In this document: in pieces, positions 3,318-33,900 of the stretch
How positions within the stretch are numbered: position 1 is the first letter of the stretch
Layout of the letters: the number at the start of each line of letters is the position of its first letter
Virus record (IMG/VR): IMGVR_UViG_3300042482_000702
Coordinates: 11,355-75,354 of that record
Origin: a virus
DNA length: 64,000 nt
Strand: one strand, 5' to 3'
Position numbers and translations under genes: made by a program
Notes under the pieces: model-generated
Databases searched by the model: none
Told to the model about the DNA's origin: nothing
What the model saw: the letters and a program-made list of their open reading frames with translations, nothing else

Positions 3318-3356
3318 AAAAACCCTCACTTAACGGTGGGGGTTTCTTTTTTAAAA
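3318..3356. terminator. bidirectional rho-independent terminator
   Basis: AAACCCTCAC-ttaacg-GTGGGGGTTT hairpin flanked by A-run and T-run between convergent genes. Confidence 0.55.
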
Positions 3357-3662
3357 TAAGTTGAGGTGTCTTATTTTTTTATTTGTTATTCTTTCAACAA
3401 TTTCAGTTAATAAAGGTTTTAAACTTTTATAATCAAGACCCAACTGAGTTGTGATATCACTAATGGTTTTAATACTAAAAGCGATATCATCACTTATTTC
3501 ATCATAAATAATAACAATATCACCATTTCTTGACGAAATCCATTGTTCTTCTTCACCATAAGTATCGTTTCGTCTCATTTTAGATACTACTTTTTTCTCT
3601 AAAGGCCCGATAAATTTAACAATAACATCCAATAATCTATTTTCAGTAATCAATACTTTCAT
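3351..3662 (-). CDS. MKxxITEN-leader family protein (103 aa)
   Basis: N-terminus MKVLITENRLLDVIVKFI matches shared leader. Confidence 0.55.
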   Translation of the reverse strand: MKVLITENRLLDVIVKFIGPLEKKVVSKMRRNDTYGEEEQWISSRNGDIVIIYDEISDDIAFSIKTISDITTQLGLDYKSLKPLLTEIVERITNKKIRHLNLF

Positions 3663-3758: not shown

Positions 3759-4151
3759 CTATTCTATTGTTTTAACCGGAACATTAAAGTTATCCCAAAA
3801 CCAATCAATAAATGGTTGTTTCCATCTATCACCAAAAAGACTATTTAATTGGTCTAATTTATCGGAGTCTTCAAATTCTAATATCGGAGATTTATCAATC
3901 ATTTCTTTTAAAAAAACAGGACTTAAAGTTTCAGATTCTTCACTACGCCAATAATCTTCATCATACCATCTAAATAGAGTGTTATCACCATCATCTTCAT
4001 AATCATCTGTATAAAATTCTGTTGCGTAATCAACTTCATTACCCCAATCATCTATACCTGGTGTCCACCCAATATTATTAACATCAAACATACTATTCAG
4101 ATGTTTGATAATTAGTTCGTTAATCTTATTTTCGGTTATTATAATTTTCAT
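3759..4151 (-). CDS. MKIIITENK-family protein (130 aa), conserved WF..F..PVK C-terminus
   Basis: N-term MKIIITENKINELIIKHL; C-term LNSLFGDRWKQPFIDWFWDNFNVPVKTIE shared with paralogs at 23638, 23267, 25069, 15859. Confidence 0.6.
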   Translation of the reverse strand: MKIIITENKINELIIKHLNSMFDVNNIGWTPGIDDWGNEVDYATEFYTDDYEDDGDNTLFRWYDEDYWRSEESETLSPVFLKEMIDKSPILEFEDSDKLDQLNSLFGDRWKQPFIDWFWDNFNVPVKTIE

Positions 4152-4173
4152 CTTTATAAATATGTGTAAATTA

Positions 4174-4198
4174 AAAACCCCCCGAATCCGAGGGGTTT
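4174..4198. terminator. rho-independent terminator hairpin
   Basis: AAACCCCCCG-aatc-CGAGGGGTTT. Confidence 0.45.
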
Positions 4199-4201
4199 AA
4201 A

Positions 4202-4663
4202 TTATATTTCTTCACCAAATAAGTCATCTATCCATCTTTCGGGAACTAACACCACAATATACCCTTTTACCACATTAACTGCGGATGTTGGTAGTAAGTT
4301 ATTAATTTCCTCTAATAGTTCCTCATTCTCCTTAAAAACGATTCGTAATTTACCATCTTCAGCGGTATCAACAACTTTATGTCTATTATTTTCCATAATG
4401 GACTTAAAATTTTCTATATCTCCAAATTTATCTTCTGTTTCTTCTGGCTCAATATCCAAATCACCACCTAAAAATCTATCAGGAACATTACTTTCACCAC
4501 CACTTTTTAAATACTCAATCTCCTCATCAGTCATACCTTCTAACCCAACCTCGTTGTATAAGTCTAAGATACTATCGTAATAATCGGTATTAAATTGTTC
4601 CATCATAATTAATTTAATGATGTCTTTCAATTCAGATTCTGTTAATTTTATAATTTTTCCCAT
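4202..4663 (-). CDS. acidic protein with N-terminal leader (153 aa)
   Basis: MGKIIKLTESELKDIIKLIMMEQ leader helix; Asp/Glu-rich. Confidence 0.55.
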   Translation of the reverse strand: MGKIIKLTESELKDIIKLIMMEQFNTDYYDSILDLYNEVGLEGMTDEEIEYLKSGGESNVPDRFLGGDLDIEPEETEDKFGDIENFKSIMENNRHKVVDTAEDGKLRIVFKENEELLEEINNLLPTSAVNVVKGYIVVLVPERWIDDLFGEEI

Positions 4664-4705: not shown

Positions 4706-4828
4706 ATTTATCGTATTTTTTTAAAGGTAATATAAATTAGATGTAATAAAAATATTGTCGATATTAATACCATTAACCCCAATAACACAGCACTTCCGGT
4801 TATTATAAATTTAAAAAAAGTTTCCATT
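4706..4828 (-). CDS. small membrane peptide (40 aa, METFFKFIITGSAVLLGLMVLISTIFLL...)
   Basis: Short ORF with TM helix, TATCTTTG promoter element at 4844-4851 just upstream. Confidence 0.3.
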
Positions 4829-4858
4829 TTTATTTATTTTTCACAAAGATAGTAATAA

Positions 4859-5065
4859 TTATTTACTTTGAACTAAAAAATAAACCATCCCCTCTTTTTT
4901 AAAAAACACATTTCTTGGATTATCCACACTTGGTGCTGTACTCCATAATTCCGTTAACCCCTCTTGGTCATCCATTGGTCTCATAATCGCTTTTTTGTCG
5001 GTGAACTTAATTGTTCTTGTAATTTCTTTTTCCATATGTAAAATATAAGGAAATTTAAATAACAA
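4859..5065 (-). CDS. hypothetical protein (68 aa)
   Basis: ORF only. Confidence 0.3.
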   Translation of the reverse strand: MLFKFPYILHMEKEITRTIKFTDKKAIMRPMDDQEGLTELWSTAPSVDNPRNVFFKKEGMVYFLVQSK

Positions 5066-5079
5066 GTAAATTTGATTGG

Positions 5080-5715
5080 TTGGAAATTAATAACTATATT
5101 TGGGTTATGGAAGAAATAATTAACAAATTAATAAATTATCACATAAAGGGTATGGATATATACACCCATGGTGGCTCCGTTTGGTTAATTTTTACCAAAA
5201 CCAAAGAATGGATACTTGAATTGGATAATAATAAAACTTTATGGTATAATTTTCATTATTTTGATGCAATATTTTCTTACGCATCGTTGGGTGTTATCGA
5301 TAACCAACAATATATCACAAAATGGGTAGAAGATAATATTCTAAATGGGGTGGAAGATACTCAGAATAACTCACATTCCAACGAAAGCTGGGTTGAGGGT
5401 GTTATTAAAAAGGGTGTAAAACAAACCTTACCTGAATTGGGAAAATATATTCACGATGTTGAAGAAGTAATTGAACAGGGAATAAATCATATTCAATCTC
5501 ATGTTATAAAAAATAAATATATCGTTGAAGAGGTAATTGAAGATGGAATTCTCAATACATATGAAGACTTATATCACCATAAACATAGAGTGGAGGGTGT
5601 AATTAAGAATGGTATCAAAGATACCGCACCAATGGATAATTGGGTTAATTCAGAACGAATGGTCACCGAGGTTATTAAAACCGGAATTAAAGAAACAAAT
5701 AACCCCACCGATTAA
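5080..5715 (+). CDS. repeat protein (211 aa) with four VEGVIK-G-K-T repeats
   Basis: Internal ~20-aa repeats VEGVIKKGVKQT / VEEVIEQGINH / VEEVIEDGILNT / VEGVIKNGIKDT / VTEVIKTGIKET; terminator follows. Confidence 0.55.
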   Translation: MEINNYIWVMEEIINKLINYHIKGMDIYTHGGSVWLIFTKTKEWILELDNNKTLWYNFHYFDAIFSYASLGVIDNQQYITKWVEDNILNGVEDTQNNSHSNESWVEGVIKKGVKQTLPELGKYIHDVEEVIEQGINHIQSHVIKNKYIVEEVIEDGILNTYEDLYHHKHRVEGVIKNGIKDTAPMDNWVNSERMVTEVIKTGIKETNNPTD

Positions 5716-5732
5716 GGATGGGGTTATTTTTT
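5701..5732 (+). terminator. rho-independent terminator
   Basis: AACCCCA-ccgattaagga-TGGGGTT + T-run. Confidence 0.45.
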
Positions 5733-5877
5733 ACATCTCAGATTTTAATCTTCTGAGAATTTCGTTGTTTTTATTAATTATTTTTAATTTCTTAACAACA
5801 TTTACTCTGTTTTTTTTAGGTTTCCCTGGTTTTCTTGATTTAGACATAATAATAATTTAATAATAAATATATCAAAA

Positions 5878-6126
5878 TCACATAATACCTTCTATAGGTA
5901 AATTATATCTAATTTTAAACCATTCACTAAAAAATTTTTGGAACTCCATTCTATTAATACTAAACATTAATTTACTGTCACGTAAAATACTATCATTATA
6001 AAACACAATTTGTTTTATATCGTGATACCCAAACGAATGACCCTTAAACCAATTAGGTTCATCATTACTTTCAACTAATTCACCTAAGTAATACTTATCA
6101 AAATATGTGAAGATTGATTTTTTCAT
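5878..6126 (-). CDS. hypothetical protein (82 aa)
   Basis: ORF; TATCTTTG element (6131-6138 on minus) 4 nt before ATG, so leaderless. Confidence 0.45.
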   Translation of the reverse strand: MKKSIFTYFDKYYLGELVESNDEPNWFKGHSFGYHDIKQIVFYNDSILRDSKLMFSINRMEFQKFFSEWFKIRYNLPIEGIM

Positions 6127-7316: not shown

Positions 7317-7595
7317 TTATTCTGAAATATCCTCAATACCGGCTTCAGGAAAATTATCTTGGAGATACCTCAACATTAAATCATTTGAGTTTCCCCCAAA
7401 GAAATCCTCCAACTCATCTTCCATATCATAACTTGCAAATATAAAACTACTTTTATTTTTCCATCCAAAAACATCCCCATGATTTTTCCAATTTCGAAAC
7501 TCCCTATGCTCGGGGACATAAATTAAATTTGTTCGGTGATTAATATATTTAACGAACGCATCATACATTTTACTTTCGGTGATTATTATTTTCAT
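7317..7595 (-). CDS. MKIIITESK-family protein (~93 aa)
   Basis: Leader MKIIITESKMYDAFVKYI (start at internal ATG of track ORF). Confidence 0.55.
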   Translation of the reverse strand: MKIIITESKMYDAFVKYINHRTNLIYVPEHREFRNWKNHGDVFGWKNKSSFIFASYDMEDELEDFFGGNSNDLMLRYLQDNFPEAGIEDISE

Positions 7596-7596
7596 A

Positions 7597-7956
7597 TTAT
7601 TCATTAACAAAGTTATTTATTATATAATCTAACCCAATACCCAAATGTTTAATACCAAGAATGTTTAAAAAATCAGATTCGTCAATTTTACGATTTTGTT
7701 TTTCACTTAAAACTAATACACCATATTCTTTTTGAGGTTGGGCATAATAATTATTACCATTAATATGAAACAAATACATTGACCCATAATTGTTAAGTAA
7801 CCATCTAAACTCTTCTCTACCATCAGAGAACAAGTATTGACCTTTAGGTCCTAATTCAACCCAATTTGTAATCACCTCAATATGGTCGGATAAATTATAT
7901 CCCACCTCCTTGGTAATTAAATCTTTTATTTTATTTTCCGTGATTATAAATTTCAT
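7597..7956 (-). CDS. MKFIITENK-family protein (~119 aa)
   Basis: Leader MKFIITENKIKDLITKEV (start at internal ATG; track ORF extends over upstream gene). Confidence 0.55.
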   Translation of the reverse strand: MKFIITENKIKDLITKEVGYNLSDHIEVITNWVELGPKGQYLFSDGREEFRWLLNNYGSMYLFHINGNNYYAQPQKEYGVLVLSEKQNRKIDESDFLNILGIKHLGIGLDYIINNFVNE

Positions 7957-8239: not shown

Positions 8240-8881
8240 TTATTCAAATAAAAAAGGGGGTGGGGGGATTTGGAACCGACCGGAGGGAGTTCGGGTTATC
8301 AAACTATCATACACATTACAAATGTCTTGCTCATTAAGACCCAAGTATTTTTTTGTAATACACGTACTTAAATGACCAAATAATTCCTTCAATAAAATTA
8401 AACTTTCATTTGAATAATTATTCACTTCTAATACCCTTCTACCAAATGTTTTCCTAAAAGTATGTGTTGAAACATTCCCATCTAATTTTATTCTATACTT
8501 TTTTACCAATTCTTTAAGTTTTACATTCACATAAGATTTATCAATTGATTTAGTTCCGTACTTATTTATGAATATAAGTTGATTTAAATTAGTTATGTTG
8601 GATTTTAAAACAATCCTGTCAACAATCTCTTTTAAATCTTTATTTACTTTAACATTTCTTTGTTTTTTTGATTTTACCTCTCTGAATGTAAAAGTTTCAT
8701 TACTTAATAAATCTGAATAAGTAAGTTTTAATAAATCTGAAATCCTTAAACCTGTAAAAACCCCAATTGAAACTAAAAGACAGAATTTATAATGTTCATC
8801 TTTTTCTAATTTTGTAATTAATGATATAAAATCATTCCACTCAAAATATGCTGTAGTTATATTTTGTCCTCTGTTACTCAT
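8240..8881 (-). CDS. tyrosine recombinase / phage integrase family (213 aa, catalytic domain only)
   Basis: GLRISDLLKL (Arg I), HTFRKTFGRRV (HxxR), LLKELFGHLSTCITKKYLGL (His/Tyr) motif order typical of tyrosine recombinases. Confidence 0.7.
   Translation of the reverse strand: MSNRGQNITTAYFEWNDFISLITKLEKDEHYKFCLLVSIGVFTGLRISDLLKLTYSDLLSNETFTFREVKSKKQRNVKVNKDLKEIVDRIVLKSNITNLNQLIFINKYGTKSIDKSYVNVKLKELVKKYRIKLDGNVSTHTFRKTFGRRVLEVNNYSNESLILLKELFGHLSTCITKKYLGLNEQDICNVYDSLITRTPSGRFQIPPPPFLFE
8255..8296. repeat. att-like direct repeat copy A (part 1)
   Basis: Matches copy B with 2 mismatches; encodes integrase C-terminal PPPPFLFE. Confidence 0.6.
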
Positions 8882-8887
8882 AATATG

Positions 8888-9253
8888 TTATTTACTCATG
8901 TCGTATTTGAACTCTATATTGAATTCACATTGTTGTTCACATATCAAGTATCGTTCCACCATATCAACATAGTTTTTTGGGACATCAACGTATGAAAAGT
9001 ATTTTACCTTACACCTTCTATTAAGAATTATTTCATTATATTCATCATCATACTTACTTGGCATACCAACAAATAAATGGTTCATTAATCTTCCTCGAAT
9101 AGATGATACGGATTTCCCAATATACAATATTTCTTTATCCTCACCATATAGAAAATATACCCCTATTCTTTTATTATTAGGTAAATTATTCATACTCACT
9201 TCTAATATACCTGAAAAATTATCTATTGTATATTTTATTTCTTTACCTATCAT
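8888..9253 (-). CDS. GIY-YIG family endonuclease (121 aa)
   Basis: GVYFLYGEDKEILYIGKSVSSIRGRLMNH = GIY-(10)-YIG-...-R...H module. Confidence 0.6.
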   Translation of the reverse strand: MIGKEIKYTIDNFSGILEVSMNNLPNNKRIGVYFLYGEDKEILYIGKSVSSIRGRLMNHLFVGMPSKYDDEYNEIILNRRCKVKYFSYVDVPKNYVDMVERYLICEQQCEFNIEFKYDMSK

Positions 9254-9987
9254 TATTTTTTAATCTTTTCAAATAATAAAGCTTCCTTAACAATATCTTC
9301 ATTACCGGCAATAATTTTTTTAAGAACATCCCAATTATTGACTTTATTACTTGGTTCAACCCAATCCCCATTTTTAATCAACATCTTCTTAACTTTTAAT
9401 ATTGTATTTGTTGATTTATTAGTCACAACATTAATTAATCTACAGGTATACCCGGAATTAAGAAAATGAATAATATCTTCATGTTTTAATAAAAACATTG
9501 ATTCCAATTCTATTGAACCTTTTTTTCTACCAACAATACCACCATTAAGTAATTTATTTTGATATCCTCTTGCTAATCTTTTTTGAAGTTTACCAAGTTC
9601 TCTATTAGCGTATTCAATCTCAGTCATAAAAACAGGAATTGCATTTACATTTAATTTGTTATTAATTATGGTTTCCATTTCAATATCAACACAATATATT
9701 GAGACACCTAATTCATACAGTTCAGAAATTAATTCTTTACAATTGAAAGTATCTCTACTTAATCTTGATAATTCACTAACTACAATTTTATTAACTTTAT
9801 TTTCCCGAACATATTCTAACATAGAATCAAATCCTAAACGAGATTTTTTTAATCCACTATCAATATCTTCAAAATAAGACACAACAGACCATTTCTTTTT
9901 ATTACAAAAATCTAAAACATTAGACCTTTGAGACTTCATTTTTTGTTTGCTTGTAGAAATCCTACAGTAAATTACGACTTTATCCAT
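9253..9987 (-). CDS. serine recombinase (resolvase/invertase family, 244 aa)
   Basis: N-terminal VVIYCRISTSKQK catalytic-serine motif, resolvase core; start/stop overlap with neighbour. Confidence 0.8.
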   Translation of the reverse strand: MDKVVIYCRISTSKQKMKSQRSNVLDFCNKKKWSVVSYFEDIDSGLKKSRLGFDSMLEYVRENKVNKIVVSELSRLSRDTFNCKELISELYELGVSIYCVDIEMETIINNKLNVNAIPVFMTEIEYANRELGKLQKRLARGYQNKLLNGGIVGRKKGSIELESMFLLKHEDIIHFLNSGYTCRLINVVTNKSTNTILKVKKMLIKNGDWVEPSNKVNNWDVLKKIIAGNEDIVKEALLFEKIKK

Positions 9988-10005
9988 TTTTTATTTATTT
10001 ATTAT

Positions 10006-11712
10006 TTATTTATTTTTTAAATTAACCATATAAGAACATACCTCATCAAACCAACCATTTCTTTTTGCACCTTTGTAAGCACCTGAGTATAATTTTTGAA
10101 ATTCTGTTTTTGACCTACATTTTAAGGCAATCATTTCAACATTTTCTTTAATATCCCAATGCCCTATACTTTGTTTAGTTAATACCATATGCGAACATAC
10201 TTCATCCAACCACCCGTTTTTTAATGCCGAATTGTATGCCCCCCCGCAATGTTTGGAAAACTCAGACCTATTTTTATACTTCAATGATTCCTTTTTAATA
10301 TCCTCAATATTACCCCATTTTGAATTAAACTTTGGATATATGGAAAACACCTCATCCGACCATCCATTACTTCTAACAATCAAATAAGCTCCGGGACAAG
10401 ATTTTTTAAATTCTGTCTTTGACTTATATTTTTTCGCCTCATCTTTAATATCCTCAATGGTTTTCCATTTCCCATATAATATTTCCATATGAGAACATAC
10501 TTCATCTAACCAACCATTTCTTTTTGCGGATTTATACGCTGAAACATATAATTTATTAAATTCTGATTTTGTGTTACATTTTTTTGCAACCGTTTCAACA
10601 TTTGATTTAATATCCCAATATCCCATATCACCTTGTATTAGGTTTTCTTTAGGAAATAGAATATCCAACCAACCATTTCTATAAGCACCTTCGGATGCCG
10701 CTCTACATCCCCTCGCAAATTCTTTTCGGATTCTATATTTCACAGCTTCTTTTTGGACATTTTCAAAAATATCCCACTGACCACTCCTTAACACCATATG
10801 AGAACAAACCTCTTCTAACCAACCATTTTTGCGAGCAATTGATGAAGCCCCACCTGAATATCTATGGAAATCACTCCTATTGTCAAAAGTTAGCGCAATT
10901 TCTTTTATAGATTCTAAATCCCACATTCTTGAATAACTTCCTAAAGAACCGGATTTGGCTATGTTTACGGGATTGTAACCTAATTCAATGTAATTATCAA
11001 CCCATTTTTGTTCATATTCACCAGCAATATTAACATCAACAGGGGTTTCAGTAATTAATCTAAATATTGGAGAACCATATTCTTTTATGGTCTTAAATAC
11101 AATACAACTTTCAGTATTAAGATGTTCATTTTTCCTTCTTTTATAGTTTTCGGTTAAACCCACATAAACAAGTTTTACTTCTTCCCATATGAACGCGTAA
11201 ATATATCTAGGGGAGTCATTTATGTTTGGAGTCATATGTGAACAAACTTCATCATACCAACCTTTTCTACGAGCAATTTCAGCAACATATTTATGTTTAC
11301 CCTGACAAAAATCACTTCTATTATCATACATTAGAGCAATATCTTTAATCGATTCAAAATCCCACTTACTTTCACCTTTTTTAATCCCACATTTAATAAT
11401 CATATGTGAACAGACCTCATCAATCCAACCTTTTCTTACCGCTTGGAGATACGCTCCAGTATTTTGTTCATTAAATTCTGTTCGTGTTTCATATTTTAAC
11501 GCCACCTCCCAAACAGATTCTTTATTCCAAGAATTATTTCTTTTTTTAATAAGAGGTTGAGTTAATTCATCATACCAACCATTTTTTAGTAAAGAGTTAA
11601 GAATAGAAGTGCCTTGTAATTCATTAAGGTATGTCATATTAGATATACCCACCTTACATCTTTCGTATGTCCAATAACCGTAGGGTTTTTTTTCAGGTTT
11701 ATTTTCTATCAT
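10006..11712 (-). CDS. GIY-YIG domain protein flanked by ~11 tandem NGW.DEVCSHM repeats (568 aa)
   Basis: Central YIYAFIWEEVKLVYVGLTENYKRRKNEHL GIY-YIG core; repeated ~45-aa units ending (K/R)(N/K)GW(L/Y/F)DEVCSHM on both sides. Confidence 0.55.
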   Translation of the reverse strand: MIENKPEKKPYGYWTYERCKVGISNMTYLNELQGTSILNSLLKNGWYDELTQPLIKKRNNSWNKESVWEVALKYETRTEFNEQNTGAYLQAVRKGWIDEVCSHMIIKCGIKKGESKWDFESIKDIALMYDNRSDFCQGKHKYVAEIARRKGWYDEVCSHMTPNINDSPRYIYAFIWEEVKLVYVGLTENYKRRKNEHLNTESCIVFKTIKEYGSPIFRLITETPVDVNIAGEYEQKWVDNYIELGYNPVNIAKSGSLGSYSRMWDLESIKEIALTFDNRSDFHRYSGGASSIARKNGWLEEVCSHMVLRSGQWDIFENVQKEAVKYRIRKEFARGCRAASEGAYRNGWLDILFPKENLIQGDMGYWDIKSNVETVAKKCNTKSEFNKLYVSAYKSAKRNGWLDEVCSHMEILYGKWKTIEDIKDEAKKYKSKTEFKKSCPGAYLIVRSNGWSDEVFSIYPKFNSKWGNIEDIKKESLKYKNRSEFSKHCGGAYNSALKNGWLDEVCSHMVLTKQSIGHWDIKENVEMIALKCRSKTEFQKLYSGAYKGAKRNGWFDEVCSYMVNLKNK

Positions 11713-15858: not shown

Positions 15859-16212
15859 ATGAAATTTATTATAACAGAGAATAAAAGGAATCAGATTGTC
15901 ACTGATTGGTTGGATAAGAACTATGGTAATTTAAAACCTGAACAACATAAAATTGCTTCAGTTACGTCTTATGTGGATGATAACGGTGATGAGGTATTCT
16001 CATATGATTGGTATGGATTGGTTACCATACATAACTCTGATTTACAAACAATGTTATTTACCGTATTTAATTTGGATAAGGATAGTTTAAATAGTATCTT
16101 TATACCTTGGATGATGGAGAGATATTATATAAAAGTTAATGATGTTCGGTATACCACTTGGCATTGTAATAAGTGTGGTGAATTTCATCCTACTAAATAT
16201 CATATTGATTAA
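15859..16212 (+). CDS. MKFIITENK-family protein (117 aa) with C-terminal CxxC
   Basis: Leader MKFIITENKRNQIVTDWLDK; family C-terminal block LNSIFIPWMMERYYIKV. Confidence 0.55.
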   Translation: MKFIITENKRNQIVTDWLDKNYGNLKPEQHKIASVTSYVDDNGDEVFSYDWYGLVTIHNSDLQTMLFTVFNLDKDSLNSIFIPWMMERYYIKVNDVRYTTWHCNKCGEFHPTKYHID

Positions 16213-16305: not shown

Positions 16306-16662
16306 TTATTCACACTCTTTAATGTATTTTGGGAATATATCCACCCCATGTCCTGTGAAATTATATATGATATCCCACAGCTCATCTATTAAATTATCGT
16401 ATCTAATCTGTACAGCTTGAGTTTGTGGGAAAAACTTTGTCCCATATCCCCCGATAAATGTTATATCCACCCTGTAGTTATTGTAGGGATATTCCTGATG
16501 TTGTAATTTGGTTCTGTTGTCCGGATGTTTAACTCTTACACCACAGATAATGTCTTGGTTATCCTTAACCAACATCGTATTTAATAACTTCTCCATTGTT
16601 GGAGATAAATCCTTATTTGATTCTTCCCTTAATATTCTTCTTATGGTTGTTTGTAAGTTCAT
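16306..16662 (-). CDS. hypothetical protein with MNLQ-leader (118 aa)
   Basis: MNLQTTIRRILREESNKD leader. Confidence 0.5.
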   Translation of the reverse strand: MNLQTTIRRILREESNKDLSPTMEKLLNTMLVKDNQDIICGVRVKHPDNRTKLQHQEYPYNNYRVDITFIGGYGTKFFPQTQAVQIRYDNLIDELWDIIYNFTGHGVDIFPKYIKECE

Positions 16663-16668
16663 AGTATC

Positions 16669-17232
16669 TTAATAGAATGTTTTTAATTTCATATACGGTT
16701 CCAAATTGTATTTGTCTATAATCTGTTTGAAGATTTGTTGTCTGTGTCTTAAACCTAATGTATTTTTTTGAGTGATAAATCCATAACCAAATCCTGAATC
16801 ACCACTTAATCCCACAACTTTATAATATGGTTGGTCATAAAGTTTTATTGGGTATAATCTTGCTGTGAACTTATACATCATATGGTCTTTGGCTCCGAAT
16901 TTAAAATCCCCCAATTCTTTTTCACCACGATGTTGTAATCGTGTATTATCATTTAGTCCAAGTTTTTCAACCAACGCGTCATGTAGATATAATGACTTTT
17001 TATCTACCGACATATAAGCCAATGGAGTATGAGTATCTTCACTGAACTTCATAATATCACCATCATAAAGAACACTTATTAAATAATCAATCCCACCTAT
17101 TAATTTAGATGTTACGTCTATCCCCAATTTTTTTAACATGGATTTCATAGAATCTTTTTTTGATTCAGATTCTTCGGTTATAAGTCCACCCATCATTTGA
17201 TGTATTCTATTTATATTCTCTTGTAAGTTCAT
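16669..17232 (-). CDS. MNLQENI-RI--MMG leader family protein (187 aa)
   Basis: Leader MNLQENINRIHQMMGGLITEE; homolog of 19151..19618. Confidence 0.55.
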   Translation of the reverse strand: MNLQENINRIHQMMGGLITEESESKKDSMKSMLKKLGIDVTSKLIGGIDYLISVLYDGDIMKFSEDTHTPLAYMSVDKKSLYLHDALVEKLGLNDNTRLQHRGEKELGDFKFGAKDHMMYKFTARLYPIKLYDQPYYKVVGLSGDSGFGYGFITQKNTLGLRHRQQIFKQIIDKYNLEPYMKLKTFY

Positions 17233-17280
17233 AACTATAAATATAAAAAAAAGGGAAAATATTACTTTCCCCTCTTTTAA

Positions 17281-17907
17281 TTATCTTCTTATAAAGAAAT
17301 TATCATCGTCTCTCCTTATCTTCTTCATAAAGGAAAGGTAATCACCTGAATCTCTATATCCTAATGGTAATAATAATGTTGACTTTAATCCTAACTCTTT
17401 TAATCCTAATATCTCATCCACTTGTGCTGGTACAAATCCCTCCATTGGTGTTGAATCTATCCCCTCGAGTGCTGACGCAACCAATGAGAACCCTAACCCT
17501 ATATATGTTTGTTTCTGTGCCCATGTTGTTTTTTGTTCCTCTGACATATTATTGATTGTTCCTATCATCATATTTTTAAAATCATCTAACCCCTCTACAG
17601 GGATGTTTCTTTGTGTTGCCGTATCATTAATATACTTATCCACCGATTCCTCATTTATTGTGTCCCATACAGCAAATACCAATACAGCCGATGAATCCTT
17701 TAATTGTGTCTGTCCGTAGCACGCCGGAACCAATCGTTCTTTTAACTCTTGGTCCTCGATGACAATCACCTGATATGGCGTTAGTCCATATGAACTTGGA
17801 GCCAACTTGGTTACCTGTAATATTTTATCTAATTTGTCTTGAGGGATTTTATCCCCATTCATTTTCTTGGTGGCATATCTCCACTCTAACGATTCTAATA
17901 ATTCCAT
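17281..17907 (-). CDS. NAD(P)H nitroreductase family (NfsB-like, 208 aa)
   Basis: RYATKKM...L.KIL.....APSSYGLTPYQVIVIED.ELKERL matches nitroreductase N-terminal signature; correct length. Confidence 0.75.
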   Translation of the reverse strand: MELLESLEWRYATKKMNGDKIPQDKLDKILQVTKLAPSSYGLTPYQVIVIEDQELKERLVPACYGQTQLKDSSAVLVFAVWDTINEESVDKYINDTATQRNIPVEGLDDFKNMMIGTINNMSEEQKTTWAQKQTYIGLGFSLVASALEGIDSTPMEGFVPAQVDEILGLKELGLKSTLLLPLGYRDSGDYLSFMKKIRRDDDNFFIRR

Positions 17908-17965
17908 AATATATCTTTTTGTTATTAAATATATGATATTCCCCCCGATTAATCAATAGTACGAA
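17900..17965. repeat. ~60-bp conserved 5-prime region, copy 1 (upstream of nitroreductase)
   Basis: CCATAATATATCTTTTTGTTRTWAAATATATGWTATTCCCCCCGATTAATCAATAGTA also at 18812-18880. Confidence 0.5.
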
Positions 17966-17969
17966 TCTA

Positions 17970-18251
17970 TTACCTACCTTCGTATTGCCATAATACCGCA
18001 TTACAATAACTATGAACCGCTCCTTCAGTCATATTGGTTTTATGACAATGTTGTAGATGAATTGGATAATTTAAAAACCCCTCCGGAAACAATCGCCAAT
18101 TGATTGGGTTCTTTGTTATTCTTTCAGGGGCAACCTCATCTAATGTCTCCCCACAATACATACATAGATTATCCTGTTCTTTGATATATTGTATTCTAAC
18201 CTCTCTTCGTTGTTGAGGTTTTAATTTTGTATAATCTGTTGGTAATTCCAT
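17970..18251 (-). CDS. Cys/His-rich small protein, possible His-Me finger/HNH-like (93 aa)
   Basis: CMYCGETL ... HLQHCHKT ... HSYCNAV. Confidence 0.4.
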   Translation of the reverse strand: MELPTDYTKLKPQQRREVRIQYIKEQDNLCMYCGETLDEVAPERITKNPINWRLFPEGFLNYPIHLQHCHKTNMTEGAVHSYCNAVLWQYEGR

Positions 18252-18255
18252 ATTA

Positions 18256-18819
18256 TTAAAGTCTCACAGGTATCTTATGTTTGGTACCATCAGTCCTTGA
18301 ATATACTGCGTGTTGTGGCGTCATCATCATTTCATTATGTTCATCACCCAACATATTAATATAATCATTACCTTTACCAGGTTTAAGATATGCAATTGTC
18401 ATATGTGGATGATAGTCCGGATAATCACTTGTGAATGGAAATTGTTTTAAATCCTCGTTTGTTTCATTTAAACTATCCCCCATTATATCATACTTTAATA
18501 CATCATATTTCGGGTTGTTGAAACAAGATAGATTATGAGCTTTACAATTTGTGTATGTATATTTGTTTAACACATTAATTATGTCGTCAATACTCACCTC
18601 GTTATCGTGTAATCCGTATAGTAATGTACAATGTGATTCAGGTTCTAAACCAAACCCCTCTTCTTCGGTGTATAAATCATCAGGGTTTATTTTGTTGTGT
18701 AATTCCGCAATAGAATCAGGGTTAAAGTATAACATCGCACAAGAATAAGGATATGTTTGTTTATTCTCATTTATCCCCATCATTGTTTTGATTTTTGTTA
18801 ACTGTTCGTTTAATTCCAT
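18256..18819 (-). CDS. 2H phosphoesterase (LigT / Acb1-like cyclic-nucleotide phosphodiesterase, 187 aa)
   Basis: Two H-x-T-h motifs (ESHCTLLYG and HPHMTIAYL) at the spacing typical of the 2H superfamily; N-terminal MELNEQLTKIKTMMG leader. Confidence 0.65.
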   Translation of the reverse strand: MELNEQLTKIKTMMGINENKQTYPYSCAMLYFNPDSIAELHNKINPDDLYTEEEGFGLEPESHCTLLYGLHDNEVSIDDIINVLNKYTYTNCKAHNLSCFNNPKYDVLKYDIMGDSLNETNEDLKQFPFTSDYPDYHPHMTIAYLKPGKGNDYINMLGDEHNEMMMTPQHAVYSRTDGTKHKIPVRL

Positions 18820-18880
18820 AATATATCTTTTTGTTGTAAAATATATGTTATTCCCCCCGATTAATCAATAGTAAAAATAT
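18812..18880. repeat. ~60-bp conserved 5-prime region, copy 2 (upstream of 2H phosphoesterase)
   Basis: Near-identical to 17900-17965. Confidence 0.5.
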
Positions 18881-19150
18881 AACCATAATCGGTTATAAAT
18901 GTATTCTATAACTTATTATGGCTATAAGGTTCAGGACTTATTTTGTGGGTTTATAAGGGTTGGGACTTATATGTCTTTTACCATATAATTTGGATTATAT
19001 GGTTTTTATCATATATTTTGATAATATGGTGAAATATGATTATCTTTGGTGAATTGTGGTTATATTAATCCTCCGGTGGTGAAATATACTTATTAAAAAG
19101 TAAATCTTTGCCGTTGGTACCACTTATCGGTACTTTGAGCAATAATTTAC

Positions 19151-19618
19151 TTATTTGTAATAGTTTGATGCATCAACCATAAATAGGAAAACATCGTCTA
19201 ATGATTTATCATCCAAATCTGTATACTTCTTATTGTAGGATAATTTATGATATCCACCTTCATACACATCTATGGAGACAGTGTCCGAATAAAAATACTC
19301 AATTTGTTGTGCGGTATCATCATCAGGTGTACCATATGGAACGGCATTTAAACCTAATGTATATATAGAAACTCCGGTTGAATTATTTTCTTTTGATAAA
19401 TCTTGTACCACATCTTTAATAAAACCAATCTTTTGTTCGTTTGTTAAATTAATACTATCACCATACATATTCATAATAGAATCATAACCACCGAAAAGTT
19501 TAATGGTGTAATATAACCCCATCTTATCAATCATTTTGCTTATCTTTGCGGACTTATCATCCTCATTGATAACCCCCATCATTTGGTGGATTCTATGTAT
19601 GTTTTCGTGTAAGTTCAT
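19151..19618 (-). CDS. MNLHENI-RI--MMG leader family protein (155 aa)
   Basis: Leader plus homology to 16669..17232 (KLGI..T.KL.GG.D). Confidence 0.55.
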   Translation of the reverse strand: MNLHENIHRIHQMMGVINEDDKSAKISKMIDKMGLYYTIKLFGGYDSIMNMYGDSINLTNEQKIGFIKDVVQDLSKENNSTGVSIYTLGLNAVPYGTPDDDTAQQIEYFYSDTVSIDVYEGGYHKLSYNKKYTDLDDKSLDDVFLFMVDASNYYK

Positions 19619-19619
19619 A

Positions 19620-20393
19620 TTATTTTTCTTCAGGCAATTTTGTATCCTTTATAAATTTCTTGTGAGAATCCTTATATGATTTTTGTGTCTCATCATTTAC
19701 ATCTTTGGTGTATTGCCAATTCCAATATAAATCATCGTTTGGTTTGAATCCGTAAAACTCATGAACTTCTTTTTGTGTTTCACTAACTACCTCACCATTC
19801 CAATTCTGACCGACACAGATAAATCCTGTCTCAATATCCTCAACAAGATTTGATTCCCCCAATGTTGCATGTCTATTCTCAATCCAAGTCAATCTCTCTA
19901 TTAGATTCTGATAAAACATATTGGTTTGTCCCCACCTTACCGAACTAAAGAATATAATTGCGTCTGACTCAAATAACTCTTTGGATATCTTCCATAGCTC
20001 ATCCTTTGGATTATTTATATTTGCCCAACATCTATGATTACCTGACGGATTTTTTTTCTTATCTTTGAGCATTGCCTTTAATACCCCACAACTATTTCCG
20101 TCTTTTCTTGAAACATTCCCTTCACAAGGAACTATGTTAAGTTCCGGAACATCAATTAGAACTGACTTGTCACCCAACTCATCGTTGAGGTACATCGCAA
20201 TCATTTTGGATTTTGGTATGTCTTGGTTTTTTTCATCCCAATTATATCTATTGGAACAACTTAGTAGTAATACCTTTTTCTTTTTCTTTAGAATGTCCAA
20301 TGTTTTCTTTACTGATTTCCATGCGTCCGATTGAACCATCTCCTCAGCAATCATCATTTCTCTTATTCTAATTATATTTTCCTGTAAGTTCAT
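19620..20393 (-). CDS. flavodoxin-like fold / NADPH-dependent FMN reductase-like protein with Cys cluster (257 aa)
   Basis: KKVLLLSCSNR (GSxR-like) and SDAIIFFSSVRWGQ blocks; CEG..C..C cluster; MNLQENIIRIREMM leader. Confidence 0.45.
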   Translation of the reverse strand: MNLQENIIRIREMMIAEEMVQSDAWKSVKKTLDILKKKKKVLLLSCSNRYNWDEKNQDIPKSKMIAMYLNDELGDKSVLIDVPELNIVPCEGNVSRKDGNSCGVLKAMLKDKKKNPSGNHRCWANINNPKDELWKISKELFESDAIIFFSSVRWGQTNMFYQNLIERLTWIENRHATLGESNLVEDIETGFICVGQNWNGEVVSETQKEVHEFYGFKPNDDLYWNWQYTKDVNDETQKSYKDSHKKFIKDTKLPEEK

Positions 20394-20462: not shown

Positions 20463-21179
20463 ATGAAAAATATACACTTATTATCAACAAAATCAAAAAC
20501 AAGATTGTATCTATCTAACTATGGTAAAGAACTTAATTTAGCTAGTCATCCAACAACATTTTTCACCACAGGTCAACACATCTACATCACTTCTGATGAA
20601 GAAATTAAAGAGGGGGATTGGTGTTTAGATTTAATGAATAATACAATTTATGTAGCTACAAAAGTTGTTGTACATAATCTAAAATCATTAGAGTATGAAG
20701 AATATCTTAAAAAAATCATCCTAACAACAAACCAAGATTTAATTAATGATGGTATACAAGCTATTGATGATGAATTTTTAGAATGGTTTGTTAAGAATCC
20801 AAGTTGTGAGGAGATTAAAGTTGAGGTTGTTGATGATAATATACAATGGTATAAAATAATAATGTCAAATAAAGTCTTTACACCAATTTATAACCATGTT
20901 GAATTTATCAATGATAATATTGATGAGTTTGATGAAAAGATTAAGGAGTTCAAACACGAATTTAAAGTATTAACTACAAAAGAAGTTATGGAAGGACGAA
21001 GTAGTGCATATAACTTTATTGATTTTGGTAAAATAGAAACACTTGAAGATATTAAACTTGAAGAAGTGGTTGGGAGTAAGCATTGTCGATATTCAGTCAT
21101 TGAAAATAAGTTATCAGCACTCTATAGAAATCAAGAACAAATTTTAAAAGCTATTAAAATGTTAAACCATAGAAGATAA
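20463..21179 (+). CDS. hypothetical protein (238 aa)
   Basis: ORF with promoter motif. Confidence 0.5.
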   Translation: MKNIHLLSTKSKTRLYLSNYGKELNLASHPTTFFTTGQHIYITSDEEIKEGDWCLDLMNNTIYVATKVVVHNLKSLEYEEYLKKIILTTNQDLINDGIQAIDDEFLEWFVKNPSCEEIKVEVVDDNIQWYKIIMSNKVFTPIYNHVEFINDNIDEFDEKIKEFKHEFKVLTTKEVMEGRSSAYNFIDFGKIETLEDIKLEEVVGSKHCRYSVIENKLSALYRNQEQILKAIKMLNHRR

Positions 21180-23266: not shown

Positions 23267-23638
23267 TTACCAATTATGTATATCCCCAATACCCATATTC
23301 TCCCAATCTAATGAACCCGGATTTGAAAAATATACCTCATCAGGTTCAATATTCACCCGACTTTTAAACCATTGGGAGATTAATTGGGTTTTCTCATTTT
23401 CATCAAATGAGAAGATATCTAAAATATTCTCAAAACTATTTGTAACATATAAATGGTCTCTCTTTTCAGACCATCTCATAATAATATCACCATCATTGTC
23501 TTTGAACACCACTTGTTGATTACTATATACAGAATCTTTATTTGAATCAAAATCTTCCCGACTTAAATCATTAAAGATATCATCTAATAACTTATACGCT
23601 AAATCTTTTCTTTTATTCTCTGTTATTAATATTTTCAT
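23267..23638 (-). CDS. MKILITENK-family protein (123 aa)
   Basis: Leader + family C-terminus QLISQWFKSRVNIEP. Confidence 0.55.
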   Translation of the reverse strand: MKILITENKRKDLAYKLLDDIFNDLSREDFDSNKDSVYSNQQVVFKDNDGDIIMRWSEKRDHLYVTNSFENILDIFSFDENEKTQLISQWFKSRVNIEPDEVYFSNPGSLDWENMGIGDIHNW

Positions 23639-24033
23639 TATATTTTTAAATAATCGTCCGTTATTTGTTTAACCTCTAATCCCGTATTTTCTTCAAACCA
23701 CTGTTTAAATATTGGTTTCCATAAATTTCCAAATAAAGAAGTTAGTTTTCTACCAACTATAGGATATATGTGTAATAAAGGACAGTCATAGTCATGTAAA
23801 GGGCCATAACCCGCAAAATATTCATCTTCCGGGCCAGCATTTGCATTACAACCATAATAAATGTAAGAATCAACATCATTTATAAAAAAAACAAGGTCTC
23901 CCCACTTATCAACATCATCTTGGTAAGTACCTGAGCGGTTATTTTCATGCCACCCATAATCCGGAGTATATTCCCTATCCAAATACTTACGGACAACACC
24001 CTCAATCTTATTTTCCGTTATTACTATTTTCAT
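23638..24033 (-). CDS. MKIVITENK-family protein (131 aa)
   Basis: Leader + C-terminus LTSLFGNLWKPIFKQWFEENTGLEVKQI, clear paralog of 3759..4151. Confidence 0.6.
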   Translation of the reverse strand: MKIVITENKIEGVVRKYLDREYTPDYGWHENNRSGTYQDDVDKWGDLVFFINDVDSYIYYGCNANAGPEDEYFAGYGPLHDYDCPLLHIYPIVGRKLTSLFGNLWKPIFKQWFEENTGLEVKQITDDYLKI

Positions 24034-25068: not shown

Positions 25069-25404
25069 TTAACTTAAATCTTCTTTATCTTCCATATAAT
25101 GAACAATTTTAACCGGTAATTTAAATTTATCTTCAAACCAATGTTTTACTAACAATTTACTTTCATCCATTGAATAACTGAACCAAACTATAGGTGCGAG
25201 AATATCATCACAAATTGATAAAGTATTTAAATTTGGATTGTACACCATTATAATACCATCACCATTTATATAATTAACCAGAAAAACCTCCTTCCCTTGA
25301 CCATTTCTAATCTGTTTAGTTTTATTATACATTTTAGAAAATGTTTTATTCAAGTTTTTTATAGCTAATTCGTCTCTACGACTTTCCTTTATTAATAATT
25401 TCAT
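25069..25404 (-). CDS. MKLLIKESRRDE-family protein (111 aa)
   Basis: Tandem paralog of next gene (CDDILAPIV.FSY...K.LVK.WFEDKF.LPVKI). Confidence 0.55.
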   Translation of the reverse strand: MKLLIKESRRDELAIKNLNKTFSKMYNKTKQIRNGQGKEVFLVNYINGDGIIMVYNPNLNTLSICDDILAPIVWFSYSMDESKLLVKHWFEDKFKLPVKIVHYMEDKEDLS

Positions 25405-25419
25405 ATGTTATTTTATTTT

Positions 25420-25749
25420 TTAATTTAAAACACCTTTTTGTGTGTGATGAATAATTTTAACAGGTAATTCAAACTTATCTTCAAACCAATTTTTTACTAA
25501 CATTTTACTTTCATGTGGTGTATAACTGAAATAAACTATGGGAGCAAGAATATCATCACAAATGTATAAAGTACTCGCCCTTTCACCATAAATCATTATA
25601 ACACCATCACCATTTCTATAATCAATTCTCCTATGTTCTCCTGTTGAATCTGTAATATAATCAACATCAATATACATATTGGAAAATGCTTTATCCAACT
25701 CTTTTTTTGCCAATTCGTCTCTACGACTTTCTTTTATCACTATTCTCAT
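25420..25749 (-). CDS. MRIVIKESRRDE-family protein (109 aa)
   Basis: Paralog of 25069..25404. Confidence 0.55.
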   Translation of the reverse strand: MRIVIKESRRDELAKKELDKAFSNMYIDVDYITDSTGEHRRIDYRNGDGVIMIYGERASTLYICDDILAPIVYFSYTPHESKMLVKNWFEDKFELPVKIIHHTQKGVLN

Positions 25750-26360
25750 ATGTCATTTGATTTTATGTTATAAACACTTCTGTATCTACTCTTTAAATCA
25801 TAATCACTTAAATCTTCCAATTCACTAACCCTATATAATGAATTTTTATGAAGATAATTAATCATTTCACCCCTACTTAAATTATCAGTATTAACCATCT
25901 GATAACATTTACGCATATTGTCACTTTCATGAGTTTCATCAATCTCTATTTCCGGATGACCAATCTCTTGCCCAAACTTGGTTGTATATTTATCGTCATA
26001 CCATTCGGTAATAACATTTAATATAAAGGTTTTTCTAACTTGTAACATTTTAGATAAATAATCAATCTCTTCTTTATCAATATATAAATCACCAGCAAAA
26101 AACTTATCACCACTTTCAAAATCAGAGTCATCATCTTCATCACTGTTAAAATAATATCTAGCCTCCATAATAATTTTATCCCCTTTACACCATTCCTCAT
26201 TATAGTTTCCATAATTCTCTTCAGTAGGTGGAGTGACTCTTGTTGTATTAGAGATAATTTTCTCCATATGTTTAATGATAATCGATTTAGCGGCGTCTGT
26301 ACCTCTAATAAATCGTTTATTAACCTCTTCTCTTAATATCTTTTTAATTAAATCTCTCAT
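25746..26360 (-). CDS. hypothetical acidic protein with MRDLIKKILREE leader (204 aa)
   Basis: Leader shared with 38978..39916. Confidence 0.5.
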   Translation of the reverse strand: MRDLIKKILREEVNKRFIRGTDAAKSIIIKHMEKIISNTTRVTPPTEENYGNYNEEWCKGDKIIMEARYYFNSDEDDDSDFESGDKFFAGDLYIDKEEIDYLSKMLQVRKTFILNVITEWYDDKYTTKFGQEIGHPEIEIDETHESDNMRKCYQMVNTDNLSRGEMINYLHKNSLYRVSELEDLSDYDLKSRYRSVYNIKSNDI

Positions 26361-26361
26361 A

Positions 26362-26976
26362 TTATTTAATAATTCTGAACCTTAATAATGGTTTACCATT
26401 TATTGTTATATCACCTTTTTCATTCTTATCTATTGTCTTAACAACAACCTTTTTGTTTTTGAATTTTCCACCCATTATGGTATCACCGACTTTAATATCT
26501 AACTTAATCATTTCACTTAATGTTAATTCTCTCTCATCATCTTGAGTGTTCCAAATATCTTGCCCTGTTCCTTTATATATTAATCTGATTGCATCAACCG
26601 GAATGTCTTCAAAGGTAACAATATGATGTTTATAATCACCACCATCAAAATGAGCGTCTTTATACCATTGTACACCGGCTCTTTCTGTATCAATCGCCCA
26701 TATGTCATCATCATAAGTCGAATCGAACATATCTTTTTTCTTTAAACTATCTGTCGCAAATACCGCAGGGACACACTCATCATCTTCATCATAATTACTA
26801 TCAGCATAAATCATATAACATTCCCCCAAGACCGCTCTGATTCCGTATTCAGAAATACTATCTCGATTTTCTCTACTCGAAGCATGAACAACATATTTTC
26901 CGGGAGTAATCTCATCTCCCTTAACCCTTTGTTCTTGCAACAATTTATATTGTAATTCTGTTATAATTATTTTCAT
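26362..26976 (-). CDS. hypothetical protein with MKIIITE leader (204 aa)
   Basis: Leader MKIIITELQYKLL. Confidence 0.5.
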   Translation of the reverse strand: MKIIITELQYKLLQEQRVKGDEITPGKYVVHASSRENRDSISEYGIRAVLGECYMIYADSNYDEDDECVPAVFATDSLKKKDMFDSTYDDDIWAIDTERAGVQWYKDAHFDGGDYKHHIVTFEDIPVDAIRLIYKGTGQDIWNTQDDERELTLSEMIKLDIKVGDTIMGGKFKNKKVVVKTIDKNEKGDITINGKPLLRFRIIK

Positions 26977-33276: not shown

Positions 33277-33900
33277 TTACCCAATTTTAGGTGGTAGTGG
33301 CGGGTCTAACAAAAACTTATCATTAACCCAATGTCTTAATTCATTCTCAACAAAATATTCAGGGACTTCTTCGTCTTCTGATTTTTCTGAAGCCAATTCA
33401 CTAATATGTTTAGCAAATTTAATTTTATATTTATCATTTAACATAGTCATTAATCCGTCAGATATGAAAAATATTTTAGAAAATGGGTCGTCTAAATGTA
33501 TTTCACCTTCGGCAACTTGAAAAGCTTTTAATATTAATTTACCCCAAAAAGTTTTATAACTTTCTGTTTCAGTTAAACTTGGTCGTAAAAGTTTATTAAC
33601 CGCTCTCATTGTACTGGCAATAATGCCCGGAATCATAAGTTGGGGTAAGAACCACGGTAATAATCTAATAGTTGTTTTTACACCACCTTCACCAACATGT
33701 CTAAACACTCTTCGTTTGGTTGCACTATCAACAATAGCCTTTAATTGCCCAAAAGTTATCTTACCTTGACTACTACAAAATCTCTCACTATCACAAATAT
33801 TTTTAATAGTTGTTTTTGACGGATGTACCTCTACGTTTTCAAATAATTTAATATATTGGGTTTCATTTACTATAATTCTCATATTTATAAATACATTCAT
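33277..33900 (-). CDS. hypothetical protein (207 aa)
   Basis: ORF. Confidence 0.5.
   Translation of the reverse strand: MNVFINMRIIVNETQYIKLFENVEVHPSKTTIKNICDSERFCSSQGKITFGQLKAIVDSATKRRVFRHVGEGGVKTTIRLLPWFLPQLMIPGIIASTMRAVNKLLRPSLTETESYKTFWGKLILKAFQVAEGEIHLDDPFSKIFFISDGLMTMLNDKYKIKFAKHISELASEKSEDEEVPEYFVENELRHWVNDKFLLDPPLPPKIG

Follow-up and report, generated by a model that had tools for sequence, protein, structure and literature searches.

An N-terminal leader shared by unrelated proteins of an uncultured freshwater jumbo phage is a candidate capsid-targeting propeptide

We analyzed a 64,000-nucleotide (nt) stretch of viral DNA, positions 11,355 to 75,354 of IMG/VR record IMGVR_UViG_3300042482_000702 (here called the window), with a focus on the genes at positions 16306-20393 of that stretch. 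These genes belong to a hypervariable accessory region; the genome is that of an uncultured freshwater jumbo phage in the T4 superfamily, and the host of this phage is probably a member of the Bacteroidota. Five of the seven proteins encoded here start with a leader of about 18 residues, MNLQENIxRIxxMMG followed by a hydrophobic residue, any residue, and Glu (hydrophobic-x-Glu). The leader is a lineage-wide modular tag on otherwise unrelated proteins and not a mark of this region. With moderate confidence, we read it as a modular N-terminal targeting propeptide that would act like the capsid targeting sequence (CTS) of phage T4 and load enzymes into the capsid. We consider this the best reading because relatives that carry one of the tagged genes, encoding a flavodoxin-like protein, encode a T4-type portal, a prohead protease (gp21), and a major capsid protein (gp23) alongside it.

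The leader and the proteins that carry it

The open reading frame (ORF) list of the window places seven consecutive ORFs on the minus strand within 16306-20393. Family and structure searches assigned a nitroreductase, an Acb1-family 2H phosphodiesterase, a predicted flavodoxin/flavin mononucleotide (FMN)-reductase fold, and an endonuclease VII (EndoVII)/HNH-like protein, leaving three products without an assigned function. The genes are as follows, with protein lengths in amino acids (aa).

19620-20393, minus strand: predicted flavodoxin/FMN-reductase-fold protein, 257 aa; leader MNLQENIIRIREMMIAE at nt 20343-20393
19151-19618, minus strand: protein without a family match, 155 aa; leader MNLHENIHRIHQMMGVINE at nt 19562-19618
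18256-18819, minus strand: predicted Acb1-family 2H phosphodiesterase, 187 aa; leader variant MELNEQLTKIKTMMGINE at nt 18766-18819
17970-18251, minus strand: small Cys/His protein, EndoVII/HNH-like, 93 aa; no leader
17281-17907, minus strand: nitroreductase, 208 aa, NfsB-like at the family level; no leader
16669-17232, minus strand: protein without a family match, 187 aa; leader MNLQENINRIHQMMGGLITE at nt 17173-17232
16306-16662, minus strand: protein without a family match, 118 aa; leader subtype MNLQTTIRRILRE-E at nt 16621-16662

Four of the five leaders are of the MNLQENIxRIxxMMG type, including MNLQENIIRIREMMIAEE on the 19620-20393 product and the variant MELNEQLTKIKTMMG on the 18256-18819 product. 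The fifth, on the 16306-16662 product, is of a related subtype, MNLQTTIRRILREE, and belongs to the MNLQESIRRILREE subtype seen in relatives. A first-pass annotation of this DNA had described five consecutive minus-strand genes with the leader. Its coordinates were right, but the run consists of seven ORFs, and two proteins to which it gave the leader, the nitroreductase (N terminus MELLESLEW...) and the Cys/His protein, lack it.

The products of 16306-16662, 16669-17232, and 19151-19618 had no match in Pfam, PHROG, or NCBIfam. The latter two had been taken for paralogs; they are alike over residues 1 to 57 (47% identity), and the similarity is confined to that part. In the 155-aa protein, the shared part holds a second N-terminal module, which follows the leader and extends to about residue 57. 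Megablast of positions 14 to 24 kb against GenBank phages matched nothing.

In IMG/VR, a degenerate DNA version of the leader matched 83 stretches of viral contigs, of which many are 200 to 318 kb long, and among 185,579 bacterial and archaeal genomes, one per species, it had 0 matches. Two contigs resemble the window closely: IMGVR_UViG_3300023184_000027 (208 kb) has the gene group at 12.8 to 22.5 kb, and 3300042465_005589 (318 kb) is syntenic. With a strict DNA pattern, the proteins behind the leader formed 23 unrelated cargo clusters; at the level of a hidden Markov model, 105 leader proteins fell into 40 cargo clusters with no similarity beyond the leader. Recognizable cargo domains were few: a P-loop kinase, HD, and PG-binding plus phosphatase. 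The leader begins at the initiator Met in all matches, and tagged genes often stand in runs of several. Searches with the peptide itself were less productive, as tblastn of the 20-aa leader against GenBank phages gave no match, a 44-column leader profile retrieved only short fragments without names from a set of 5.8 billion proteins, and a literature search for the leader motif strings found nothing.

Conservation of the leader at the protein level

The leader ends in [ILVM]-x-E in 65 of 67 nonredundant cases, with the Glu at residues 15 to 24 (peak at 17 to 19), compared with 18.7% of interior windows. Endings such as VINE, LITE, INE, IAE, and LRE occur, and their spacing from the conserved core varies (GINE, GVINE, GGLITE). 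Invariant residues are encoded by alternating synonymous codons (E5, GAA/GAG, 49/43; R9, AGA/AGG, 50/42; I10, ATT/ATA/ATC), which argues that the peptide is under selection; this pattern of invariant amino acids and variable codons extends to residues 15 to 19. Orthologues of the flavodoxin-like and Acb1-like proteins that have another leader type also keep an N-terminal helix ending in hydrophobic-x-Glu, e.g., MIKLTDLIKEMVLNEE.

A similar ending is common among the proteins of the window, 38 of whose 86 ORFs have [ILVM]xE[ESNDQ] within the first 25 residues; the corresponding counts are 10.4 +/- 2.7 for interior windows and 14.2 +/- 3.2 for shuffled N termini. Because the enrichment persists after N-terminal shuffling, composition alone does not explain the motif.

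Other recurring N termini were also seen. Eight small proteins (95 to 131 aa) start with MK(I/L/V)(I/L)ITENK or MK/R..IKESR (3351-3662, 3759-4151, 7317-7604, 15859-16212, 23267-23638, 23638-24033, 25069-25404, and 25420-25749). By BLAST, seven of these eight are full-length paralogues, and 7317-7604 shares the N terminus only. An N terminus of this MKIIITENK type is also found on unrelated proteins at 26362-26976, 36424-36963, 40535-40849, and 33277-33900. A third type, MRDLIKKILRE(E/Q), at 25746-26360 and 38978-39916, is related to the MNLQESIRRILREE subtype, which is common in relatives. The 469-aa product of 45385-46794 has a leader-like start, MKKLIIESGIREIK; its N-terminal domain is weakly DHH/RecJ-like (below cut-offs), and the protein could be one more enzyme that degrades nucleotides or signals. 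A related uncultured phage of 634 kb (L094, LR745206.1), the ClpP of which is 58% identical to that of the window, has a recurring N terminus of its own: MKYLKxFExxxES or MKYIKSYKIFES, ending in hydrophobic-x-Glu-Ser, on about 12 ORFs in 40 kb (55122-95859).

Two tagged proteins with predicted enzymatic folds

Profile and model evidence indicate that the 18256-18819 product is an Acb1-family protein and a putative nuclease directed against CBASS (cyclic-oligonucleotide-based antiphage signaling system). It scored 30.5 bits with Pfam PF23474 (Acb1; cut-off, 27), and among its 379 relatives, nearly all of the closest 120 carry PF23474. Neither of the catalytic motifs, H63-x-T65 and H139-x-T141, varies across the 32 sequences aligned, which bears out the earlier call of a 2H phosphoesterase. 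The AlphaFold2 model (pLDDT 89.6) has the leader helix at residues 3 to 13, a low-confidence coil at residues 14 to 25, and the catalytic domain from residue 26. The leader helix is detached from the domain in this model, and the I-N-E site lies inside the coil, with NKQTYPYSCAMLYF... just after the Glu. Foldseek searches with the model returned the phage BCSR5 phosphodiesterase, Usb1, the poxvirus cGAMP phosphodiesterase, and Acb1 (7t27); in a PDB sequence search, the sole match was Acb1, and it was weak (E = 0.28).

A flavodoxin/FMN-reductase fold for the 19620-20393 product is supported by structure prediction. This protein had no Pfam, NCBIfam, or PDB-sequence match, and tblastn against GenBank phages gave none either. 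Its relatives comprise 3226 metagenomic clusters, some of which JGI names "multimeric flavodoxin WrbA." The AlphaFold2 model is of moderate quality (pLDDT 65), and its top Foldseek matches were SP1951-FMN, RosB, SsuE, azoreductase, ArsH, and WrbA. All 26 matches of this pLDDT-65 model with an E value of 1e-3 or lower were FMN-dependent flavodoxin-like proteins or close homologues of them (best E, 1.2e-5; TM, 0.31 to 0.60). A Cys/His insertion (C90, C102, H120, and C122) is poorly modelled and invariant. The first-pass description of this protein as flavodoxin/FMN-reductase-like with a Cys cluster is therefore consistent with both the Foldseek matches and the invariant Cys residues.

T4-type head genes beside the leader in relatives

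In T4, the CTS is an N-terminal propeptide of 10 to 20 residues; it directs Alt and the internal proteins to the prohead core before being removed (PMC5694885). The T4 internal proteins are diverse, and only the CTS is conserved among them (PMC3012670); the protease gp21 cuts after Glu in I/L-x-E (PMC12991175).

A T4-type head module adjoins the tagged flavodoxin-like gene in many IMG/VR loci. Among leader-bearing loci, we found homologues of the portal protein gp20 in 6 (E of about 1e-26), of gp21 in 9 (E, 1e-14 to 1e-17), and of gp23 in 20 (E down to 4e-27). The module runs in the order terminase, portal, small core proteins, protease, scaffold-like protein, and capsid protein, after which come more genes with leader-like N termini. 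In the gp21 homologue, the motifs ELNHP and GISSRGVGS match the surroundings of the T4 catalytic residues H85 and S140. A gp21-type protease is present in 518 IMG/VR stretches, including contigs of 214 to 334 kb. The nearest cultured relatives of the capsid protein are those of Microcystis phage Mel-JY01, Rhodothermus phage RM378, and Flavobacterium phage immuto, and huge uncultured phages also matched. In the first 50 kb of immuto, only 2 N termini are leader-like.

Proteins of the head module themselves have candidate I/L-x-E sites near their N termini (loci L064, 2475-7727, and L042). The capsid protein has MGALLES and YLINEAA, a 245-aa core protein has KLTES, and the scaffold-like protein has SILEQ. 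In L064, the gp21 homologue is encoded at 3966-4649, and scaffold-like proteins are encoded at 4738-5976 and 2475-3212. Alignment to T4 gp23 did not fix the predicted cleavage site of the capsid protein (LINE-AA or SFE-T).

Applied to the window, capsid targeting would start with an amphipathic helix (approximately residues 3 to 14, with a hydrophobic face of L3, I7, I10, and M13/14) that docks on the scaffolding core of the assembling prohead. A gp21-type prohead protease, presumably encoded by this genome as well, would then cut after the Glu of the hydrophobic-x-Glu that ends the short exposed linker. The mature enzyme would be packaged in this way, remain in the head, and be ejected into the next host cell with the DNA. 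Tagged cargo, namely the Acb1-type nuclease, the FMN-reductase-fold protein, and three others, would be gained and lost as cassettes in the hypervariable region, with untagged morons interspersed, namely the EndoVII-like gene and a nitroreductase gene that brings along its promoter copy. This proposal draws on the observed distribution of the tag, its N-terminal position, its conservation at the protein level, the terminal hydrophobic-x-Glu, the predicted helix plus coil, the T4-type head genes of leader-bearing relatives, and the cassette indels.

Evidence against capsid targeting and alternative functions of the leader

Several observations weigh against capsid targeting. Neither the window nor the contigs syntenic with it yielded a homologue of gp20, gp21, or gp23, so we infer T4-type head assembly in this genome from relatives. 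The ClpP-bearing, window-like contigs do not overlap with the gp21-homologue loci that were compared, the best 80 of the 518 IMG/VR stretches; this non-overlap may be an effect of taking the best 80 only. Tagged genes are numerous for capsid cargo, with 5 in this region and up to about 40% of ORFs having an N-terminal hydrophobic-x-Glu. The Acb1-like gene lies behind a host-type, early-looking promoter, and capsid cargo must be made late. GenBank phage searches found no cultured relative with the tag. The T4 CTS, MKTYQEFIAE, has no obvious likeness to the leader except for the I-x-E ending. Packaging and cleavage are proposed by analogy.

Two further points against it concern codons. Some leader codons are more fixed than the encoded residues would predict from background usage: N2 is AAC in 83% of cases (71 of 85 Asn codons), I7 is ATA in 98%, and AAC is unusually fixed at N6 as well. 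In addition, codons 2 to 10 of the window genes are A-rich (48.6%, versus 35.6% in gene interiors), a sign of some further constraint on the mRNA.

The codon data are what would be expected if the leader were mainly an mRNA and recombination module, that is, a portable translation-initiation region for a Bacteroidota-like host that initiates without Shine-Dalgarno (SD) sequences, copied ahead of genes as they are acquired, with the peptide as a by-product. No SD sequence precedes the leader genes; the upstream DNA is A/T-rich, with A favored at -3, -6, and -12. Since the A-rich codons 2 to 10 and the missing SD sequence both fit initiation without SD pairing, they also hint at a Bacteroidota-type host. 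On the same reading, identity of the leader DNA also provides joints for cassette swapping. This DNA is 71 to 84% identical between genes of the window, and in relative L092, which lacks the 187-aa gene at 16669-17232, the indel junction falls exactly within 12 nt, ATGAACTTACAA, common to two neighboring leaders. As the main role of the leader, such a module is rather unlikely, because the amino acids stay constant under variable codons as far as residues 15 to 19, the hydrophobic-x-Glu is retained at variable spacing, the helix-plus-Glu pattern persists in orthologues whose nucleotides are quite different, and the motif enrichment survives N-terminal shuffling. The A-richness explains part, not all, of the N-terminal bias. 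An mRNA or recombination role is compatible with capsid targeting, and both can be true together.

We regard as improbable a docking or degradation tag unrelated to the capsid, either a Clp degron on early proteins or a helix that recruits enzymes to a common hub or compartment. Such a tag would suit the heptad-like amphipathic leader and its detached helix in the model, and a bona fide ClpP is encoded at 1171-1905 (Pfam E = 8.7e-50, with ClpP models scoring far better than head-maturation models), away from structural genes. However, no adaptor, ClpX, or ClpA was identified, and we know of no case in which dozens of phage enzymes share one degron. A degron or docking helix would also leave unexplained both the conserved hydrophobic-x-Glu ending and the co-occurrence with a gp21-type protease.

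The same ClpP was considered as a head maturation protease and rejected, as it scores as a true ClpP and its neighbors are nucleotide-metabolism genes. In related contigs, these neighbors are thymidylate synthase (split by an I-TevI-like ORF), SHMT, and FKBP, and not head genes. Its closest GenBank relatives are in uncultured phages of 634 to 642 kb and in Prevotella Lak megaphages.

The nitroreductase cassette and its regulatory surroundings

The 17281-17907 product matched Pfam PF00881 (E = 1.6e-19; 71.1 bits, cut-off 23.5) and phrog_18935 (E = 7e-46). Its best NCBIfam model was the NfsB-type equivalog NF008275, at 107.7 bits below that model's cut-off of 227. The earlier call of a nitroreductase is confirmed, and the protein is NfsB-like at the level of the family. 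A nitroreductase next to an FMN reductase had been called unusual for a phage, and in phages nitroreductases are indeed uncommon, at 6 of 50,697 GenBank records. The neighboring 93-aa Cys/His protein matched phrog_14729 (E = 2.7e-30) and phrog_423, endonuclease VII (E = 1.3e-6), and scored 19.2 bits with Pfam Endonuclease_7 (PF02945), under the cut-off of 23.6.

The nitroreductase and Acb1-like genes had been noted to share about 60 bp of upstream sequence and to be probably co-regulated. The shared sequence is real and longer, an 83-nt direct repeat with copies at 17887-17969 and 18799-18881 that are 87% identical. A 25-nt core of the repeat occurs exactly twice in the window, with 0 occurrences expected from shuffles. 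Each copy contains TTGATT-N17-TATATT and, about 25 nt further on, the start codon of the respective gene, so that a promoter shared by the two genes is plausible. The repeat and other elements around these genes are listed here.

20469-20496, minus strand: promoter-like TTGATT-N16-TATATT upstream of the flavodoxin-like gene, from a consensus scan only
19098-19152, minus strand: long hairpin and then a T-run, terminator-like by folding, directly after the 155-aa gene
18882-19097, minus strand: conserved noncoding spacer with hairpins at 18981-19002 and 18881-18923
18799-18881, minus strand: repeat copy 2, with TTGATT-N17-TATATT at 18840-18868, the 5' untranslated region, and the first Acb1-like codons
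17887-17969, minus strand: repeat copy 1, with TTGATT-N17-TATATT at 17928-17956, at the 5' end of the inserted nitroreductase cassette
17245-17278, minus strand: predicted intrinsic terminator, GGGGAAA...TTTCCC plus T8, after the nitroreductase gene; in relative L017, directly after the EndoVII-like gene

The 21-nt promoter core was not found in IMG/VR, which argues against the 83-nt repeat being a mobile element of wide distribution. Relative L017 (about 87% identical) lacks exactly 17281-17969, i.e., the promoter copy plus the nitroreductase gene, and its EndoVII-like gene runs directly into the terminator. Judged from this comparison, the nitroreductase with its promoter copy is a self-contained insertion relative to L017, placed upstream of a preexisting terminator. 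The terminator-like hairpins at 19098-19152 and 17245-17278 suggest several transcription units and not one operon. The T4 late-promoter motif TATAAATA was not enriched before genes; its 28 sites are about the number expected from base composition, and only 4 of them are located 70 nt or less upstream of an ORF start.

The noncoding stretch that separates the 155-aa gene from the Acb1-like promoter (18882-19150, about 270 nt) has a folding z-score of -6.98 relative to shuffles. Its sequence is conserved in three relatives and contains the palindromes TATAAG-N8-CTTATA at 18952-18971 and 18924-18941; no Rfam family matched the region. We did not call an RNA gene here because the conservation and the palindromes come without covariation. 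The spacer probably consists of operator or regulatory DNA ahead of the promoter, plus terminators.

These results leave it very unlikely that the genes form the redox or detoxification unit of the first-pass annotation, in which co-regulated redox and phosphodiesterase genes would detoxify nitro or quinone compounds or take over the redox metabolism of the host, with the leader marking membership. The nitroreductase and FMN-reductase-fold genes do lie within 3 kb, identical promoter-like elements precede the nitroreductase and phosphodiesterase genes, and ferritin-like and rubrerythrin-like domains are encoded in the window as well; but the nitroreductase is leaderless and an independent insertion missing from L017, the two redox genes are in different transcription units with terminators between them, the phosphodiesterase is of the Acb1 family, the leader is on at least 40 unrelated clusters elsewhere, and in another lineage the flavodoxin-like gene stands beside head genes with no nitroreductase.

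Other features of the window

Three further features lie elsewhere in the window. At 8240-11712, adjacent genes encode a serine resolvase, a tyrosine integrase, and a GIY-YIG-like protein of 568 aa (phrog_20046), a group that could represent a mobile element carried within this phage. ARAGORN called a tRNA-Leu(TAA) on the minus strand at 54644-54732, inside a 476-aa ORF with a DUF5122 beta-propeller (54257-55687); either the tRNA call is false or the gene model is wrong. At 62000-64000, the GC content rises to 47% over a repeat-rich gene at the end of the window, beside proteins of 965 aa and 1261 aa (Fib_succ_major domain), and these genes probably encode tail-fiber or receptor-binding proteins.

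Implications and comparison with known systems

If the leader is a capsid-targeting propeptide, a simple sequence rule would list the injected "first-strike" proteins of a very abundant, uncultured group of freshwater jumbo phages. Anti-signaling enzymes such as Acb1 could then be delivered premade, and the tag would offer a portable means to package foreign proteins in phages of Bacteroidota-type hosts. Even if capsid targeting is wrong, a 15-residue peptide on at least 40 unrelated clusters and in none of the cellular genomes searched needs explaining. Accessory genes in these genomes are shuffled as cassettes that start with the same leader or the same promoter.

We suggest, tentatively, that in this clade of uncultured freshwater T4-superfamily jumbo phages, capsid targeting has been turned into general effector delivery, with one tag loading dozens of enzymes for co-injection. 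The delivered set may include the CBASS-signal-destroying Acb1-type nuclease, the FMN-reductase-fold protein, kinases, phosphatases, and ParB-like proteins. Prohead protease activity has recently been reported to trigger CBASS. In a sharper variant of effector delivery, removal of the tag by the prohead protease may activate the enzymes and so couple anti-CBASS activity to the very protease activity that triggers CBASS.

The nitroreductase cassette can be compared with the promoter-early stem-loop (PeSL) elements, the mobile regulatory cassettes of T4-type phages. As with PeSLs, a repeated promoter element flanks small accessory genes, and the nitroreductase cassette is present or absent between close relatives. 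It differs from them in that the window has 2 copies only, the core is not in IMG/VR, and the stem-loop is an ordinary terminator.

The Acb1-like protein shares with Acb1 (T4 gene 57B family; PF23474; PDB 7T26/7T27) the 2H fold, the two HxT motifs, a score above the Pfam cut-off, and a phage origin. Unlike Acb1, it has an N-terminal extension of about 25 residues, the leader plus linker, before the catalytic fold. Its sequence similarity to the solved Acb1 is weak, and the closest solved structure is another phage phosphodiesterase, 9q2g.

Giant phages such as phiKZ, 201phi2-1, and SPN3US also have many head-internal proteins, including paralogous families. These are cleaved after Glu at x-x-E with Ser preferred at P1', and some, as in SPN3US, have short propeptides of 20 to 24 residues (PMC10052503). 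Unlike the leader, their sites are A/S/G-x-E, their propeptides are mostly long with no single conserved tag, and the phages belong to a different lineage.

The closest parallel is the CTS carried by T4's internal proteins IPI to IPIII and Alt, which gp21 removes. The leader differs from it in sequence and is longer (a 15-residue conserved core plus linker), and its repertoire is far larger, with at least 40 cargo clusters and several tagged proteins per genome. The leader cargo comprises enzymes such as the Acb1-type nuclease and the FMN-reductase-fold protein, the host is probably a member of the Bacteroidota, and packaging and cleavage are predicted ones. Like the CTS, the leader is a short N-terminal sequence, here a putative propeptide, on otherwise unrelated, fast-evolving accessory proteins, and it ends in I/L-x-Glu in a lineage with homologues of T4-type gp20, gp21, and gp23. 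In both cases, the cargo includes anti-defense functions, putatively so here, and the genes lie in variable regions. By this analogy, the tag, a new sequence that is widespread and modular, most likely follows a principle known from the T4 CTS.

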